Below, piece by piece: positions 4,118-47,981 of a stretch of 53,242 nt of DNA. This DNA comes from Escherichia phage CF2. The notes beneath the pieces were generated by a model. That model was not told where the DNA came from. It saw only the letters and a program-made list of their open reading frames with translations, and did not search any database. The first letter of the stretch is position 1. The number at the start of each line of letters is the position of its first letter. The stretch lies in the sequence record KY608966. One strand, written 5' to 3'. Made by a program: the position numbers and the translations under genes.

Positions 4118-4140
4118 AATAGTTACCTTTGTATTAGTTT

Positions 4141-4190
4141 CCAGGCGTGACTACTGATACCAATAGTCACTGGTTGAAACTATTACTAGT
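4141..4190 (-). promoter_or_regulatory. Early-operon 5' leader stem-loop, copy d
   Basis: Imperfect palindrome CCAGGCGTGACTACTGATACCAATAGTCACTGG, then TTGAAACTATTACT as in copy a. Confidence 0.35.
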
Positions 4191-4333
4191 GTTACTATCA
4201 ACAAGAAACATGTTACCAAATTGTTAAAGAGCGGTCTGGTACTATTCGACCAGGTAAAGTTATTATTTGCGCATCTTGACGACACGCGCCAGACAAGACG
4301 CTTGACACATTCATCATTCGTCTTGATGTAATA

Positions 4334-4362
4334 ATTATAGGCCAGTCAATCAATGTTGTACA
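4334..4362 (-). promoter_or_regulatory. Candidate leftward early promoter (TGTACA-N17-TATAAT)
   Basis: Reverse complement of ATTATA at 4334-4339 and TGTACA at 4357-4362; weak -35. Confidence 0.3.
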
Positions 4363-4459
4363 TAAAAGAATTGCAAGTTTATGCAAGTTTTTAGAAATGA
4401 TAATCACTTGCGATTGAGAGTGGTTCTCGTATGCAATTGATATAGTTTCACATGTAATT

Positions 4460-4534
4460 ACTCAATCCAAAATGGTCGGCAGGGGTTATAATCACATAGG
4501 GGTGCCACTTAAAGGAGCCGGCGAAATTATTTCT
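4460..4534. repeat. ~75-bp dispersed repeat, copy R1
   Basis: TCAATCCAAAATGGTCGGCAGGGG...AGGGGTGCCAC...AGGAGCCGGCGAAATT; shares many anchored blocks with R2. Confidence 0.6.
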
Positions 4535-4596
4535 AAAAATATAATTTCAATCTGAATTATAGACGCTTTGTGTTATAACGGCCGAAGTAGTTCATA

Positions 4597-4650
4597 CGGT
4601 AATTGTATCAATCGCAATAGTTACCAGGGTAATCGTTTCAATCGAAATAG
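4597..4650. repeat. Imperfect tandem repeat (2 x 24 bp)
   Basis: CGGTAATTGTATCAATCGCAATAG vs GGGTAATCGTTTCAATCGAAATAG, 20/24 identical, 6 bp apart. Confidence 0.6.
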
Positions 4651-4709
4651 GTGCGGCGGGGGGTAATTTCGCAGGGGTGCTACCTGCCAGGAGCCAGCGG
4701 AATTTTTTT
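4633..4709. repeat. ~75-bp dispersed repeat, copy R2
   Basis: TTCAATCGAAATAGGTGCGGCGGGGGG...AGGGGTGCTAC...AGGAGCCAGCGGAATTTTTTT. Confidence 0.6.
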
Positions 4710-4858
4710 ATTTTTTGGTATTTTCTCCTTATCAGGACCAATCATCATCAGAGTAACACGGCAGGAGCTAACCTTTTGCTTATCACAATAATAAGTGAAG
4801 CCCCTCTAAAATTTTTTTATATTTTTCGGAAATTGTGTAGACACTCACTAAAAAGTGG

Positions 4859-4887
4859 TGTACTTTCTCTCCTCCACGCGCTATCAT
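4859..4887 (+). promoter_or_regulatory. Candidate rightward promoter (TGTACT-N17-TATCAT)
   Basis: Hexamers at the expected spacing ~50 nt upstream of the first rightward gene. Confidence 0.3.
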
Positions 4888-4937
4888 TAATGTGAATCAT
4901 CAAACGGCCTCACGGTCTCCTACTTGTGGGTAACATT

Positions 4938-15500: not shown

Positions 15501-18457
15501 TGCACACGATGTTGCTTAAAGACGGATCAGACCATCGAGCTAATGTCGAAAGCCTTATCGAAGGTCACCACCATTTTCTTGAGCGCAATACTGGCAGAAC
15601 TGACGACGCTACGCGTCAGCACTATATCTTCAATCCAGAAGGAGTAGTGTCGAACAACCGCCATTTTATTGCACACACCATGATGGAGTATCAACCTAAC
15701 GGTGATGCTCCGTCTGAAAGTCAGTCGCTGCTAATACTCGGCGAAATTCACGCGTACCTTGCTACTAAGGAACAGCGGTACCTTGACAAAGCAATTGAGT
15801 ACTTCAATGCTTACGTCAAGTACTATTACGAGGGGGACCCAATCCCTGATACTCCTCGTCGCTGGATCGCTAACTGGCTTTGTAATGGCAAAGAGCCTGT
15901 GCTAGCCAGCTTCCCAATCAACCCTGATTCACCAACACAAGGCGGCTATAAAAATGTGCCAGTTAAATTTGTTAACGGCAAAGCACAAATCCCTCATGGT
16001 TCTCCTTTCTGGGGCGAGTACCTGGATGTTGCTACTTGGGCCCACAGGGGACACATGGCTTGGCCTGCTATTAATGGTGGTGTCCGTGTTATTAAAAATA
16101 AAGTTGACTGGGACGATATTTACAACAATTATCGCATCACTACCATGCCAGCTGACCCGTGGAATCAGTTAGCCTGGATTGACTGGCCGAGGTATCTGGG
16201 TGAACCAAGCTACACTGTGGACTGGTCAGCAGCTGAACCTCCTGTACATCTCATCGAGTATATTGTTGCATGGACCAATAACAAGATTGGTGTTCTACCT
16301 GGCAAAAACGATGAGCTATGGGGAGGCGAGATTCTTGAGACTGGACTGCCTGACTCTCGCAGAGGTGAGATTCAGCTACGTGACCATACTATCAACGGTG
16401 TGTACCTGCTTAACTATGCTGTTAAGCTTCCTGTTGAACATGGTGGTTATTTGCTTAAGCGAAATGAAGTATGGCACAACAGACCGGTAAACGTTCCATT
16501 GTACGGCGAGCTTCAACGCGGTAATGCTGCTGATGCTGAGTTGTGGTTCTGTGACTGCTGCTATATGCTGTGGCGAATTACTAACGAGCAAAAGTATTAC
16601 AACGCTTGGCAAGCTGTCCTGTTTACACTGGAGGAGTATATTGACATCGATAAACAAGACCAGTTCTTCCGACAAGACACTCACGCGTCGTCTCCGTTTA
16701 CTGATGGCATCTCTTATGATTGGTCTTATCCTGAACTGGCACAAGCTATATATTCACGTGATGAAAATGGTTATATAGTTCTACGTCAGAACGAAAAAGC
16801 TCAATCATCTCTGGAGCAGCAGGCTGTATGGTTTAAGTGTAAGCCAACAGCTAAGATACGTACAGAAGTTGGTGGCAAAGATGATGCTGGTCAGAATATC
16901 AGTGTCAAGGTGGAAATGTACATGAACCGTGAAAAGGTTGACGTCGAGCAAAACATCTATCGTTTTGTCACACAGCTACCTGCTCTTGGTGCTTCACCTG
17001 CTAACTACGACATTCCATTAAGCGATTTTGTCGCAGGTACTAAGCCAGATGGTTCTGAGTATATCTTAGCTGATATTCGTTCATCCACTGACTATGGCAA
17101 TGCCACTACTGCAGTGTCTTACCGTACTGACATACTTGACAACAGACGTGGCAACACTGTCCGTATGACAATACCGGATAGTTCGTCAGGTGCCATTATA
17201 GGCTTTTGGCTACTGGAATCTTCCCAGGCACCTTTAAACTCGCTGACGTATACTTCTACAGGTCCGTTGTGCATCAAAGTAACTGACGCGCAAGGCTGGA
17301 GTTGGGTACGTGATTTACCTGCCGCACCAGGATGGGTAACTCAGCAGATTCGCACCTGGGAGTTCAGGCTGGCGTCATACCAGGAAAACACAGGTACACC
17401 ACCAGCTAGCCCACAATTCGGCGAGATTAAGCAGTTCTCGTTTGTACTGCCTGACGGCGTTAATACGTCGACAAGTATTAGCTGGTACTGTGTGAATGAT
17501 GTTCCGCCTCGCTATAACTGGCCAATTGGTTATACGATTAAGTATCGTCTTACTTTCTCGGCTGATAACCCGTACACAGCTAGGCTTGGCGACTGTACTG
17601 TGCTGGACTATGAGAATGATAACCTTGCTTACACGCCAGGTGTTATTCCGTTCTCCAACATTTATAACCCTGATTCTAAGCAGTTCGATGGTTGGCACGG
17701 TATACCTTACCCTGGCTATCAGTATCCGTTTGTCTTTACGCATGACGATACTGCAGCAGGTACAATCAGGCTGAACAACATGGTTAACTTTTTGTACGAT
17801 TCTCAGCAATGGTACTATAAGAAGTTCGGTCAGCTAGGTCCTGGTGCATCTGCTTTTATCTGGAACCGTTGGGATAACTTTAAATACGGTGTACCTGATA
17901 CGTTTACCATGTATCACTGGGGTAATGGTAGTGCATGGTCAGGTTACCAGCCTCGTGCTTACTTCTCCGCAGCACGTGGATGGTATGAGCTAGTAAACCG
18001 TGGTAAGCCGGTTCCGAGTAAGCTTATTGCTTATGTGGATAACTGGTCAAAATGGTTGCTTGACTTCATGGAAAGGTCAGGAGGTGTGTCGCCTTCTAAC
18101 TTCCCACAAGAAGGTGTTGCTCTGCCAGTCCCTTCAGACTTCACAGGTCACATGTGCGGGCTATGGCTTGCTGGTGCAGCTATGTCAGCCCTTTGTGGGT
18201 CAACAGTATCAGGACTGGATAAGCTGATGGACATGCTTGTCAATGAGCTGGAAGACCATTACGACATAACTGGTATTCCGGGGCATGTAATGGATGGTGG
18301 TTGGTCACCAGCGTTACGCCTTGAAACTGGTTCAGGACCTGAAAGCAACGCCATGTACTATGGTTTTTACTCTGGCGAAATATTACGAGGGTTGGGCTTA
18401 TACCTGCTGTACAAAAACAAAGGGGCTAAAGCAGATATTTATGATTTAGGCCCGTAA
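15500..18457 (+). CDS. Large virion-associated protein (985 aa), possibly with a carbohydrate-active domain
   Basis: Longest ORF; aromatic- and Trp-rich; domain guess is by eye only. Confidence 0.8.
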   Translation: MHTMLLKDGSDHRANVESLIEGHHHFLERNTGRTDDATRQHYIFNPEGVVSNNRHFIAHTMMEYQPNGDAPSESQSLLILGEIHAYLATKEQRYLDKAIEYFNAYVKYYYEGDPIPDTPRRWIANWLCNGKEPVLASFPINPDSPTQGGYKNVPVKFVNGKAQIPHGSPFWGEYLDVATWAHRGHMAWPAINGGVRVIKNKVDWDDIYNNYRITTMPADPWNQLAWIDWPRYLGEPSYTVDWSAAEPPVHLIEYIVAWTNNKIGVLPGKNDELWGGEILETGLPDSRRGEIQLRDHTINGVYLLNYAVKLPVEHGGYLLKRNEVWHNRPVNVPLYGELQRGNAADAELWFCDCCYMLWRITNEQKYYNAWQAVLFTLEEYIDIDKQDQFFRQDTHASSPFTDGISYDWSYPELAQAIYSRDENGYIVLRQNEKAQSSLEQQAVWFKCKPTAKIRTEVGGKDDAGQNISVKVEMYMNREKVDVEQNIYRFVTQLPALGASPANYDIPLSDFVAGTKPDGSEYILADIRSSTDYGNATTAVSYRTDILDNRRGNTVRMTIPDSSSGAIIGFWLLESSQAPLNSLTYTSTGPLCIKVTDAQGWSWVRDLPAAPGWVTQQIRTWEFRLASYQENTGTPPASPQFGEIKQFSFVLPDGVNTSTSISWYCVNDVPPRYNWPIGYTIKYRLTFSADNPYTARLGDCTVLDYENDNLAYTPGVIPFSNIYNPDSKQFDGWHGIPYPGYQYPFVFTHDDTAAGTIRLNNMVNFLYDSQQWYYKKFGQLGPGASAFIWNRWDNFKYGVPDTFTMYHWGNGSAWSGYQPRAYFSAARGWYELVNRGKPVPSKLIAYVDNWSKWLLDFMERSGGVSPSNFPQEGVALPVPSDFTGHMCGLWLAGAAMSALCGSTVSGLDKLMDMLVNELEDHYDITGIPGHVMDGGWSPALRLETGSGPESNAMYYGFYSGEILRGLGLYLLYKNKGAKADIYDLGP

Positions 18458-38485: not shown

Positions 38486-39078
38486 TAAAACAGTTCCTTT
38501 TGAGCCGGGTTAACGTGTGCGTCGATGATTGCCTGGATGTCAGGTGCTTTCCATCCCTCAGGCTTAACAATATCCTGACCGGACTTATGCTTGCTGTTGC
38601 TTGCATCAGGCTTAGCGCGTTCTTTCGCCATGTTAGCAGCCTGTACCGCATCCCATGCTGCGTCAAGTGGCCAGTTGTTGTTTGCACACCAGGTAATCAG
38701 GTGGATAATTAACTGGGCCAGACGGTCGCAATGAGTGTCTTCAGTATCCTTAACGTATACAATAAGGCCATCAGCATCGAAACGGTCCATAAATCCGCAT
38801 GGCGTAGTTAACAGAATCGGATACTCAAATTCGTTGGTGAACCATGCGGTCTGGTCATACAGGTATAACGTACCTGCAGCAATGTAAATTAAATCTACAA
38901 TACCGTCTAAGAAGCCAGCTTTGTCGCCGTCCTTCTTAGCTTGTTTAATTTCTTCCATCTCCTCAATAAGACGGTCGTAACGAAGCTTGAACTCAGGTTT
39001 ACCGCCTTGACTAACAGGCTTGAGGTCAAACTTCTCATGAAAAGCGGTAACGCCTGCAGCAATTTTACTGAATCGCAT
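38485..39078 (-). CDS. MazG-like all-alpha NTP pyrophosphohydrolase (candidate dCTPase/dUTPase)
   Basis: LRYDRLIEEMEEI...DGIVDLIY resembles the MazG/HisE E..E..E...D motif; stop overlaps the downstream ATG. Confidence 0.6.
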   Translation of the reverse strand: MRFSKIAAGVTAFHEKFDLKPVSQGGKPEFKLRYDRLIEEMEEIKQAKKDGDKAGFLDGIVDLIYIAAGTLYLYDQTAWFTNEFEYPILLTTPCGFMDRFDADGLIVYVKDTEDTHCDRLAQLIIHLITWCANNNWPLDAAWDAVQAANMAKERAKPDASNSKHKSGQDIVKPEGWKAPDIQAIIDAHVNPAQKELF

Positions 39079-39463
39079 TTCGTAACTCCTTACAAACAGT
39101 TTCGATAAACTTACGTTTAATTTCTGTAGACCAGATAATATGACGAGCCTGTTCTAAAGTGTCCCAACGTTCTTTACCCACAGGAAAGGGAACAATGAAA
39201 AGGCCGGTACGGGATATGCGCTTGATAAACGGGAATTTACAGCGCATGGTTGTTTCAAACTTGATAAAGTTTGTTTGCACATCGCGTGTAAACTTGACCT
39301 TATCAAATTCATGTTCAAGAGTTTGAGCAATGTTGCATACTTCCTGGAAAGAAGATGCAGGCAAGTAATCTTCGCGGCCGACGGTGTTCACGTAGTCGAT
39401 TTGGCCTTCTAGCCGAAGTATCCAAATCCTGTAATAAGCTTCAGCAACACGTTGTAGGTTCAT
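39065..39463 (-). CDS. Hypothetical protein (132 aa)
   Basis: ORF track; SD AGAGGAGAGA upstream. Confidence 0.6.
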   Translation of the reverse strand: MNLQRVAEAYYRIWILRLEGQIDYVNTVGREDYLPASSFQEVCNIAQTLEHEFDKVKFTRDVQTNFIKFETTMRCKFPFIKRISRTGLFIVPFPVGKERWDTLEQARHIIWSTEIKRKFIETVCKELRNAIQ

Positions 39464-39489
39464 TGTATCTCTCCTCTAAAAGATAACTT

Positions 39490-39534: not shown

Positions 39535-39575
39535 TGGTAAAAATAAAAAGGACCAGCGTTAACTGGTCCTTTTGG
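39535..39575 (-). terminator. Strong rho-independent terminator (functional mainly on minus strand)
   Basis: AGGACCAG-CGTTAA-CTGGTCCT hairpin with TTTTTATTTTT after it on the minus strand. Confidence 0.7.
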
Positions 39576-39579
39576 CAGG

Positions 39580-40140
39580 GTGGCGTAAGGAGATACAAGG
39601 CATCGTAACTATGCAACCAGGCAGCGCATATGAGATTGGCCAAAAGATTTACCATTTTAATCCCCGCGACGAGACGAAAAGGAGGTGTCATCTAGTAGCC
39701 AATCACATATGCGTTACTTGCTGTGTGCTCTCACCGCGGAAAGTATAGAGCGTTGCACTTATCACACCGATGGAGTGGCAAAAGCACACAGCAAGTACAA
39801 CCTTAGTTGTGGTGTCTTAGCACCTGAGTTATTGTGGATAACCTGCACCCGACGGGTGTCAAAAAGATACGCCAAAACACCACAACTAAAATTGTGACCG
39901 CCGTCTACACCAGGCGCCTGGGGTCAAGGTAGCGAGCCAATACCCTTTTCAGCGTCGGAGGAATCGAACCTCACACATCACGGCTTTTACCAAATCTCGG
40001 TCAGCGAGCAGAATTGAACTGCATTCACTGGACACCCTCACTGTTTCAACACACCAGGCTTAATTGATTGTTGATAAGAAGAGAGATGTAAGGATGTCCA
40101 TTGAATGCACCTCCGTAGAGGTGCGTTCAGATCAGCGCTA
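39580..40140 (-). other. ~560-nt structured non-coding region (candidate ncRNA, 3' UTR element or origin)
   Basis: No credible ORF; 15-bp inverted repeat 39715-39729/39783-39797; 13-bp inverted repeat 39803-39815/39877-39889; palindrome CCAGGCGCCTGG at 39910-39921. Confidence 0.3.
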
Positions 40141-40608
40141 TTATTCAGCAACTTCTTCGTTGTCGCCTTCGATCGCGCCAGCCAGTTTAGCAGCTTCAGC
40201 TTTAGCAGCTTCTGCTTTCTGGCGAGCTTTTTCAGCTTTCTCTTCAGCTTTGCGAATCTGCTCAGCAGCTTTCGCTTCGGCTTTTTCAGCTTTGATGCGA
40301 GCACGCTCTTCAGCTTTACGCTGTTTTTCAGCGGCTTTAGCAGCATCGCGTTCTGCTTTAGCGGTATCAACACGCTTAGCCAGAACTTTACCAGTGGCTT
40401 TACGCCAGTAGGTCAGCTGGGAAGAAACAGTACCACGGGACATTTCGGTAGTGGCAACAACTTCGTCCATAACGTCAGAGCTGGACTTGCCTTCTTCATG
40501 GGCTTTATCAGCCAGGTCCCATACGTAACGTGCGCCAGTACCAGCTGCCGGATACAGTACGCCGTTAACTTCTTCTTTACCAGTTACAAAAGTCAGTTTC
40601 TCACTCAT
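40141..40608 (-). CDS. Protein with Ala/Glu/Lys-repeat C-terminal tail (possible nucleic-acid-binding protein)
   Basis: ATG at 40608 with SD GAGGAA; C-terminus is KAEKAEAKAAE-type repeats; own promoter upstream. Confidence 0.7.
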   Translation of the reverse strand: MSEKLTFVTGKEEVNGVLYPAAGTGARYVWDLADKAHEEGKSSSDVMDEVVATTEMSRGTVSSQLTYWRKATGKVLAKRVDTAKAERDAAKAAEKQRKAEERARIKAEKAEAKAAEQIRKAEEKAEKARQKAEAAKAEAAKLAGAIEGDNEEVAE

Positions 40609-47694: not shown

Positions 47695-47981
47695 TTACGT
47701 TTACCTTTACGTTTGTGTAGCGGAGTATATGTTTTCTTTGACACGCCAAACATGGCCGCATATGTACCGACTTCTTTCTTTGTTGGCTTATCCACAATCT
47801 CGTCAATCACGATTAAGTCATGGTTGATATTGCGAAAGACTTCAGCCGCTCTTTTCTCAACAGGAGTAAAGTCAATAACCAGCTCTTTGCCTATCAGGCT
47901 TTCTTTGAACTTGTCAAACAGCCATTTGTCTCGCGGACCAGGATTGCCCATAAACATAACACGCATCTGCTTATTGTCCAT
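47691..47981 (-). CDS. Hypothetical basic protein (96 aa)
   Basis: ORF track. Confidence 0.55.
   Translation of the reverse strand: MDNKQMRVMFMGNPGPRDKWLFDKFKESLIGKELVIDFTPVEKRAAEVFRNINHDLIVIDEIVDKPTKKEVGTYAAMFGVSKKTYTPLHKRKGKRK

Follow-up and report, generated by a model that had tools for sequence, protein, structure and literature searches.

This study concerns a stretch of about 600 nucleotides (nt) in DNA of Escherichia phage CF2 (sequence record KY608966; the 53,242 nt analysed are called the window below). Positions 39536-40140 have been selected as a minus-strand RNA and hold no conserved open reading frame (ORF). This RNA belongs to a recurrent family of phage RNAs, whose shared core combines tRNA-like hairpins with an invariant sequence, UCGCUGACCGAG. 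Our favoured reading, to which we give slightly better than an even chance, is that the minus strand yields a structured RNA of about 600 nt whose core mimics the elbow of tRNA and is recognised by a conserved tRNA-reading factor, the RNA being accessory. A first-pass annotation of the window had offered three readings of the locus: a structured non-coding RNA, a regulatory 3' untranslated region (UTR) or the replication origin. The first is strongly supported by conservation, compensatory changes, the asymmetry of G-U pairs, UNCG tetraloops, T-loops and membership of an RNA family.

Selection as a folded minus-strand RNA

The minus-strand RNA of 39536-40140 folds at -242.8 kcal/mol, compared with -175.6 +/- 5.9 kcal/mol in shuffled sequences (z = -11.45). 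For the plus strand of the same segment the z value is -6.9. The intergenic region occurs in three clades of one phage group, with the following identities:

Rosemountvirus clade: 94-100%
Loughboroughvirus clade (S144, SE4, ZCSE2): about 80-84%
Unclassified clade (fHy-Eco03, KE25, SE1_KM): about 77%, with rearrangement

The 5' 425 nt of the RNA are 82.6% identical to S144. In the same comparison the gene for a 132-amino-acid (aa) protein downstream reaches 75.7%, a MazG-like gene 78.1%, the helicase gene (at its 3' end) 76.6%, and the upstream gene, which encodes a 155-aa protein rich in alanine, glutamate and lysine (A/E/K), 86.1%. This part of the RNA therefore outscores most flanking genes in conservation across genera, but not the A/E/K-rich gene, which is the best-conserved gene of the neighbourhood (85-88% nucleotide identity between genera). 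The last 140 nt or so before the terminator, which form hairpin H7, show no conservation between genera.

Comparative folding against related phages, which the first-pass annotation had suggested as a check, upholds the paired stems. A helix model of 63 pairs, comprising H1, H2, T1, Pc, H5, H5b and a tentative 5' pairing, was applied to an alignment of 16 distinct sequences, in which the H5 module of the fHy-Eco03 clade was shifted to the Rosemountvirus position for alignment purposes. Standard pairs are found in 99.8% of the 1008 cells; sliding the 3' partners by 1-3 columns lowers this to 38-52%. Compensatory double changes occur at 7 of the 63 modelled pairs (22 cells). The one-sided changes are all compatible with G-U pairing on the minus strand (UA to UG, CG to UG, AU to GU) and give A-C mismatches on the other strand.

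As the first-pass annotation had claimed, the locus has no credible ORF; none of at least 75 aa exists on either strand between 39464 and 40037. The ORFs of the stretch vary in strand, frame and length between clades, each sense frame has 9-14 stops, and indels have lengths that are not multiples of three. A coding frame conserved in relatives, the finding that the annotation named as fatal to its reading, was not found. GenBank records disagree on the small ORFs of the stretch and place different 'hypothetical proteins' there, which are probably spurious. In Loughboroughvirus (S144, locus L003; SE4, locus L004, 1508-1831) an ORF of 100-107 aa runs antisense to the RNA, and in the SE4 record it is annotated as a coding sequence of 107 aa. 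This ORF is broken by stops in Rosemountvirus and is probably not a gene.

Parts of the RNA

The RNA can be divided into a core and a series of hairpins on both sides of it. In order of transcription its parts are as follows:

39536-40140, minus strand: whole structured segment, which starts at the stop codon of the A/E/K-rich gene and includes the terminator with its T-run
40107-40124, minus strand: H1, a hairpin of 7 bp capped by a UNCG tetraloop; paired in 99.1% of cells across the 16 sequences
40023-40106, minus strand: H2, a 19-bp stem (40088-40106 / 40023-40041) with one A-G mismatch and a variable pyrimidine-rich apex; 100% of cells paired
39894-40025, minus strand: conserved core, consisting of AAU, T1, UCGCUGACCGAG, the D-like bulge, P2 and T2, on to Pc; matched by covariance model R1
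40008-40022, minus strand: T1, a T-arm-like hairpin GCAG-UUCAAUU-CUGC with the loop UUCRANU; from family alignment A5
39996-40007, minus strand: UCGCUGACCGAG; its UGACC (39999-40003) provides the closing helix Pc with its 5' strand
39985-39996, minus strand: D-loop-like bulge or mini-hairpin GAUUUGGUAAAA with a conserved GG; from family alignments A4 and A5
39980-39984, minus strand: 5' strand of P2, GCCGU, which pairs with ACGGC at 39900-39904
39958-39972, minus strand: T2, a second T-arm-like hairpin GAGG-UUCGAUU-CCUC, which contains GGTTCGATTCC; its stem is replaced in relatives
39895-39904, minus strand: 3' strands of P2 (ACGGC, 39900-39904) and Pc (GGUCA, 39895-39899)
39798-39894, minus strand: H5, a 20-bp stem (39871-39890 / 39802-39821) around H5a and H5b; 100% of cells paired
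39715-39797, minus strand: H6, a long hairpin with a perfect 15-bp inverted repeat and a stem of about 17-18 bp; from the inverted-repeat search
39625-39713, minus strand: H7, an imperfect hairpin with 31-nt arms; specific to Rosemountvirus and absent from S144, SE4 and ZCSE2
39535-39573, minus strand: intrinsic terminator with a 12-bp stem (39546-39573), a 4-nt loop and the tail TATTTTTACC; kept in all clades

The hairpin GCACCUC-UACG-GAGGUGC, now H1, was already seen in the first-pass annotation, which placed it at 40101-40118, 6 nt away from its actual position. It extends to 12-nt arms (40102-40113 / 40118-40129). The tetraloop, c(UACG)g in the window, is c(UUCG)g in relatives and varies only within the UNCG class, a tetraloop class specific to RNA. 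The 3' arm of H1 also contains a perfect Shine-Dalgarno-like GGAGGU (40101-40113), 7 nt upstream of an AUG which opens a 13-codon ORF, MDILTSLFLSTIN (40062-40103, minus strand). GGAGGU and AUG are invariant. A small gene behind this site was considered and rejected; its frame and length differ between clades.

H2 has compensatory changes at two pairs, GC to AU and AU to GC. Its apex (40077-40094) is 78% complementary over 18 nt to the ribosome binding site (RBS) and start codon of the 132-aa gene (39460-39477); the other clades keep only a short CUCC-type match.

In the core, one P2 pair differs among the three clades: Rosemountvirus has G-C, Loughboroughvirus A-U and the fHy-Eco03 clade C-G. 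Pc (UGACC/GGUCA) is paired in 100% of cells. The T-arm-like element GGTTCGATTCC noted in the first pass lies at 39960-39970 and proves to be part of T2. The T2 stems are unrelated in the three clades (GAGG/CCUC here, CUGGG/CCCAG in Loughboroughvirus, GCCUG/CAGGC in the fHy-Eco03 clade), while the loop is always UUNGANU. The palindrome CCAGGCGCCTGG, also reported before, lies at 39910-39921.

On the 3' side of the core, H5 shows compensatory changes at five pairs. The 13-bp inverted repeat described in the first pass (39803-39815 / 39877-39889) is there, enclosing CACCC-GUC-GGGUG at 39846-39858, and is part of a 25-nt repeat with 84% complementarity. The enclosed hairpin is H5a (39846-39858), CACCC/GGGUG here and CAUCCU/GGGAUG in relatives. 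H5b (39828-39842) carries TTATCCACA. An internal sigma-70 promoter at a UUGACA in H5 was rejected: its spacing to a -10-like hexamer is 16 nt in one clade and 19 nt in another, and a promoter scan gave no call. The perfect 15-bp repeat of H6 (39715-39729 / 39783-39797) was recovered by the repeat search as previously described. The upper stem of H6 covaries, with GCUUUUGCC/GGUGAGAGC here and GCUCUUCUC/GAGGAGAGC in S144. The RNA segment ends, as the first-pass annotation had it, at a strong terminator, in which a GC-containing hairpin is followed by a U-run.

In the fHy-Eco03 clade the H5 module is placed between H2 and T1. Because this module sits elsewhere in one clade, the decorations of the core appear to be modular. 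In the records of two phages parts of the RNA are missing. Salmonella phage rivia (locus L012, MT074438.1) lacks 145 nt equivalent to 39847-39991, which lie between the D-like element and the middle of H5. SPHG1 (locus L011, MW413353.1) has mosaic deletions which leave three joined pieces of the RNA. Since such variants exist, the core would be accessory for growth on laboratory hosts, provided that the assemblies are correct.

A family of phage RNAs

The family was found by scanning IMG/VR with exact patterns, the first of which was an 18-mer, TCTGCTCGCTGACCGAGA, from the most invariant block. The scans retrieved 15 stretches with TCTGCTCGCTGACCGAGA, and 21 and then 51 with two further patterns. 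Unexpectedly, the matches of TCTGCTCGCTGACCGAGA included metagenomic viral contigs unrelated to Rosemountvirus. After removal of coding false positives (L028, L029, L032, L040, L046, L057, L060, L063, L072, L074 and L078) about 40 distinct members are left, on contigs of 5 kb to 412 kb. Among 50,697 records of cultured phages the core is found in about 58 of the Rosemountvirus group, four of Cellulophaga phages and four of N4-like Rhizobium phages, and in no others; these isolates include Cellulophaga phi13:2 and phi19:3 and Rhizobium RHph_N38 and RHph_I1_6. A metagenome scan with the H2 motif gave two chance matches, both in coding DNA.

The shared core begins with (A/U)AU, followed by T1 (a stem of 4-5 bp with the loop UUCRANU), UCG and CUGACCGAG. 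Next come a mini-hairpin or bulge with GG (e.g., AUU-UGGU-AAA or CUC-AGGU-GAG) and the 5' strand of P2. The apex is variable and usually includes a second T-arm and a GGUNNAA motif. The core closes with the 3' strand of P2 and GGUCA, which in the short versions is followed by a U-run at once.

In alignment A5, T1 is paired in 100% of cells, three of its four pairs are doubly changed, and none of 500 shuffles reaches its score. The subgroup with a 5-bp T1 has 13 distinct stems among 18 sequences, and 14 of the 18 members have the second T-arm. The 12 nt of UCGCUGACCGAG are invariant in all members of A4 and A5, although most members were found by scans in which this motif was obligatory. Cellulophaga phage phi13:2 has a compensated Pc (UUAUUG/CAAUA). 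Across A4 and A5 one G of the D-like GG is invariant and the other nearly so, and the flanking 2-4 bp, read by eye, vary (UU/AA, UC/GA, CUC/GAG, CGC/GCG). P2 is represented by about 12 different sequences at the same offset in other members.

A covariance model, R1, was built from 17 members with all sequences of the Rosemountvirus group excluded. Against the whole window it gives one significant match, at 39976-40026 on the minus strand (69.1 bits, E = 8.7e-20), and the next match has E = 0.16. The CF2 locus has T1 directly before UCGCUGACCGAG and a D-like element containing GG, the features captured by R1, as well as a Pc helix that is extended by P2 across the D-like bulge. The RNA of the window is thus a member of this family.

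At least 14 members begin 2-12 nt past a tRNA gene (L037, L039, L043, L045, L047, L048, L049, L062, L064, L073, L075, L081, L082 and L083). Further members follow tRNA-like T-arms, and some are directly followed by another tRNA. In L027, L036 and L042 the core lies between a PDDEXK exonuclease gene and a DUF3127 gene, about 15 nt past a stop codon, with no tRNA. Neither is the core of the window immediately downstream of a tRNA gene; H1 and H2 occupy that place, behind the A/E/K-rich gene. The position next to a tRNA is a frequent but not universal feature of the family. A Pfam search of the neighbours of the core gave PDDEXK exonuclease, DUF3127 and terminase and nothing else.

Some members have additional elements. 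GC-rich ones (L031, L051, L053-L055, L058, L059, L071, L077 and L079) carry an extra hairpin after Pc, GCCGG-GAAAGA-CCGGC, with the consensus CUGRCAGCCGGGAAAGACCGGCA. In three of these (L053, L054 and L071) an acceptor-like partner of 7-8 bp for UCGCUGAC is present about 30-40 nt upstream of T1.

Comparison with known RNAs

The core is a previously unannotated family within a known kind of RNA, the non-coding RNAs that mimic tRNA, and the copy in the window is unusually large and decorated. The covariance search that the first-pass annotation recommended identified no known family: with Rfam 15, which includes ROOL, GOLLD, OLE, group I and II introns, 6S RNA, RNase P and Y RNA, neither the window nor seven family loci reached a gathering score, and up to E = 10 there were chance-level matches only. 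The best alignments below threshold, from a GC-rich member, were to tRNA-Sec (19.8 bits; gathering score 47) and mascRNA-menRNA (18.2; 42.5). A transfer-messenger RNA was sought as well and rejected, since ARAGORN and Rfam give none in the window. In the GC-rich member L053, ARAGORN calls a 96-nt 'tRNA-Ser' with T1 as its anticodon arm. This call is unlikely to be right because the equivalent of nucleotide 37 is often a pyrimidine across the family.

The likeness to tRNA lies in T1 and T2, each with a stem of 4-5 bp, a G-C closing pair and a 7-nt loop UUCRANU, in a GG that resembles G18-G19, and in the location of family members inside phage tRNA clusters. Unlike tRNA, the core has no cloverleaf, anticodon arm or CCA, and T1 precedes the closing helix instead of following an anticodon arm.

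Among described RNAs the nearest analogue is YrlA, a bacterial Y RNA whose tRNA-like domain is a circularly permuted mimic of tRNA in the order T stem-loop, acceptor-like hairpin of 6-7 bp, UA and D stem-loop; YrlA-like RNAs have also been reported from phages (Chen et al. 2014, PMC4201824; Wang et al. 2018, bioRxiv 10.1101/312249). The core resembles YrlA as a putative non-coding tRNA mimic with no anticodon loop or CCA end, and the order of its elements is similar: a T stem-loop (UUCGA..), a short element and then a D-like element with two conserved G residues. While YrlA has its acceptor-like hairpin of 6-7 bp, the core has the invariant spacer UCGCUGACCGAG and the long-range pairing Pc. 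The core usually has a second T-arm, and it follows tRNA genes instead of standing beside rsr/Ro60.

Other known RNAs are more distant. The mascRNA of MALAT1 and the 3' tRNA-like structures of plant RNA viruses also end a longer transcript with a tRNA-like fold, but their topology differs and the core occurs in DNA phages. ROOL and GOLLD, which occur in phages and prophages, are large and ornate (Weinberg 2017, PMC5737381; Kretsch 2025, PMC12286853). They share with the present RNA a length of several hundred nt, a high degree of structure, a function yet to be established, carriage by phages and a frequent location near tRNA genes, and the Rosemountvirus RNA, at about 540-600 nt, is comparable in size to ROOL. 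It has no Rfam match to them at E values up to 10, however, and its conserved part amounts to about 100-135 nt only. The papers on Rosemountvirus and Loughboroughvirus do not mention the RNA; it may stand unnamed among the 10,006 viral candidate RNAs catalogued in 2023 (PMC10690425).

Possible function of the core

Hairpins with a G-C closing pair and the loop UUCRANU are T-loops. GG motifs like G18-G19 dock on T-loops to form the tRNA elbow, and the elbow is read by many enzymes. By analogy, the T-loops and GG motifs of the core may form tRNA-like elbows, and the RNA may be recognised by a conserved factor which reads the shape of tRNA. The core itself consists of T1, UCGCUGACCGAG, the GG bulge, P2, usually T2, and Pc (UGACC/GGUCA). 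In Rosemountvirus and its relatives it is decorated with long hairpins, of which H1 and H2 precede it on the 5' side while H5, H6 and H7 follow on the 3' side. Candidate factors are a tRNA processing or modifying enzyme (e.g., RNase P, RNase Z or TruB) or a defence system or toxin that targets tRNA. The RNA could be a handle for processing and stability where the tRNA or mRNA transcripts of the phage end, or else a decoy. With no more than moderate confidence we suggest that the core mimics the tRNA elbow and is placed at the 3' end of phage tRNA transcripts or early transcripts. A more specific version is tentative and, in our estimate, falls somewhat short of an even chance: the cores would be widespread tRNA-elbow mimics that hijack or titrate a universal tRNA-recognising factor, and in Rosemountvirus and its relatives the core would have grown into an ornate RNA of about 540-600 nt and may form higher-order assemblies.

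As for the transcript, the first-pass proposal of a regulatory 3' UTR may also be right. The promoter scan found no promoter-like site between the A/E/K-rich gene and the RNA, so the latter is probably the 3' part of the transcript of that gene, running from the promoter of the gene to the terminator at 39546-39573.

Several points weigh against the elbow mimic. The ends, processing and stability of the transcript are deduced from promoter and terminator consensus, contacts between T-loop and GG are proposed by analogy, and the partner protein or enzyme is at the level of a candidate. The compensatory events come from three clades, so that the count of independent events is small and their weight modest. 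Assembly errors at hairpins could account for the deletions in rivia and SPHG1. The core is not a canonical cloverleaf, and neither ARAGORN nor the Rfam tRNA model (RF00005, E up to 10) recognises a tRNA in the window. Across contigs, the neighbourhoods of the core have no protein family in common. An acceptor-like partner of UCGCUGAC upstream of T1 is not enriched, with 24 members showing at least 6 pairs compared with 26.5 in shuffles. For this reason the 5-bp 'Acc' pairing of the window (40136-40140 / 40002-40006) is tentative; an acceptor-like pairing seems real in some GC-rich members only (L053, L054 and L071).

Ranked second after the elbow mimic is a passive 3'-end module, in which the folded 3' UTR and terminator shield the upstream mRNA or tRNA operon from 3' exonucleases with no specific partner. 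We consider this unlikely. It fits the location of the RNA, which is flanked by a stop codon and a terminator and lacks its own promoter-like site, the U-run directly after the closing helix in short family members, and the core located about 15 nt past the exonuclease gene in L027, L036 and L042. But a roadblock does not demand so much constraint: the 12-nt invariant sequence, the GG and the T-loop motifs are kept across phages of Bacteroidota, Alphaproteobacteria and Enterobacteria. Moreover, the window already possesses a strong terminator apart from the core, 320 nt further downstream.

It is still less probable that the core is an adaptor distantly related to YrlA, which would tether a host protein (Rsr/Ro60) to an exoribonuclease. 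The order of T-arm, short spacer and D-like element does resemble that of YrlA, YrlA-like RNAs are reported in phages, and the Salmonella hosts encode Rsr. E. coli, on the other hand, usually lacks Rsr, and the hosts of the family include marine Bacteroidota as well as E. coli. The Rsr-binding motif of YrlA, GNCGAAN0-1G, is not conserved upstream of T1. The spacer could form an acceptor-like hairpin of just 3 bp, which competes with the covarying Pc for the same nucleotides. No rsr, Ro60 or TROVE gene is found in the annotated first 50 kb of S144 or among the neighbours of the window locus (an HMM search of all window proteins was not made), and the family adjoins tRNA genes, not rsr.

A replication origin or primer RNA, the third proposal of the first-pass annotation, is very improbable. 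Here the inverted repeats and a DnaA box would act as DNA, or the transcript would prime replication in the manner of ColE1 RNA II. The locus does lie in a block of replication and nucleotide-metabolism genes, it has many inverted repeats, and it contains a perfect DnaA box, TTATCCACA, at 39833-39841 which is invariant in all clades. ColE1 RNA II and phage origins likewise offer a structured transcript of about 550 nt inside a replication module. The hallmarks of an origin are missing, however: there are no iterons (direct repeats are short and two-copy only), no cluster of DnaA boxes, no AT-rich unwinding element (GC is about 46%) and no inflection of the cumulative GC skew. In the window DnaA boxes with at most one mismatch number 19, compared with 13.4 +/- 3.2 expected, and are not enriched. 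The region has one perfect and one single-mismatch box, and the perfect one makes up the stem and loop of H5b, a conserved RNA hairpin. Unlike RNA II, the transcript stops at a strong intrinsic terminator and not at an RNA-DNA switch point, other phages have the same core in tRNA clusters, and 145 nt of the region are missing in rivia.

A more origin-like stretch exists elsewhere in the window. The claim that the locus is the only long non-coding stretch is true for its operon, and a second one lies outside it, at 4118-4925. These 808 nt have no ORF of at least 75 aa on either strand, a GC content of 34-38% compared with about 46% for the genome, and a local swing of GC skew. This AT-rich stretch is probably a divergent early-promoter or control region and is the better origin candidate. 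Note that the perfect 9-mer TTATCCACA occurs four times in the window, at 18034, 39833, 41230 and 47788, and that the weak second match of R1 (47779-47815, E = 0.16) overlaps the last of these.

Finally, decayed tRNA genes or small coding ORFs with no function at the RNA level are hardly credible: the T-arm-like hairpins could be tRNA remnants and several GenBank records annotate small ORFs (e.g., the 107-aa antisense ORF of SE4), but no tRNA is detected in the window, conservation exceeds that of most neighbouring genes, compensatory changes maintain the stems, indels are not multiples of three and the ORFs vary by clade.

Source phage and neighbouring genes

The source phage belongs to the genus Rosemountvirus (type BP63), myoviruses of about 52 kb. 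Over 1.35 kb around the locus it is 99.6% identical to Escherichia phage BEC1-17 and 99.4% identical to Salmonella phage BP63. The RNA locus is a gap on the minus strand between the 155-aa gene on the 5' side and the 132-aa gene on the 3' side:

40685-40657, minus strand: promoter TTTACA-17-TATATT, with 10 of 12 matches to consensus; the BP63 record annotates the same promoter
40141-40608, minus strand: A/E/K-rich gene, 155 aa (BP63_59), the upstream neighbour; PHROG 28664, function unknown
39065-39463, minus strand: 132-aa gene, the downstream neighbour, with its own promoter at 39518-39490

The strong promotion of the A/E/K-rich gene asserted in the first pass agrees with the consensus matches of this promoter. 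A Pfam search with the 155-aa protein gave no match, and a sequence comparison with solved structures gave nothing meaningful. Its homologue in fHy-Eco03 is annotated as detected in virions by liquid chromatography-tandem mass spectrometry (LC-MS/MS). The protein could be a partner of the RNA and is a candidate for that role. A search for relatives through the flanking 132-aa protein returned the same phage group and nothing more distant.

A host origin of the sequence was rejected, because collections of E. coli genomes and plasmids contain solely copies of the phage itself. Whole genomes from this group are entered as 'plasmids' in two complete E. coli assemblies (NZ_CP067310.1 and NZ_JBVNBN010000003.1). 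The same group appears as a 34-kb contig of a 'Bacillota' metagenome-assembled genome (locus L038, JAEWER010000021.1), and a 'Listeria phage' record (PP583539.1) is 99.5% identical to the window. The copies with these labels are probably due to carry-over, contamination or mislabelling of the host.

Implications for phage biology

To our knowledge, few structured RNAs that are large or strongly conserved lack a known function; among those of phages, ROOL and GOLLD are still without an assigned role. For the CF2 locus the annotation can be corrected, in that the stretch is probably a non-coding RNA and not a set of small 'hypothetical proteins'. E. coli and Salmonella are hosts of the Rosemountvirus group, which is already used in biocontrol work; with natural deletion variants also on record, the function of the RNA is directly testable. 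UCGCUGACCGAG and the tRNA-like hairpins are common to phages of Enterobacteria, Alphaproteobacteria and Bacteroidota and to many uncultured viruses. The biology of tRNA is a main battleground of anti-phage defence, where tRNA-cleaving nucleases meet replacement tRNAs carried by phages. An invariant sequence and tRNA-like hairpins shared so widely imply that the RNA may have a conserved partner and may be part of a general phage strategy tied to tRNA biology.

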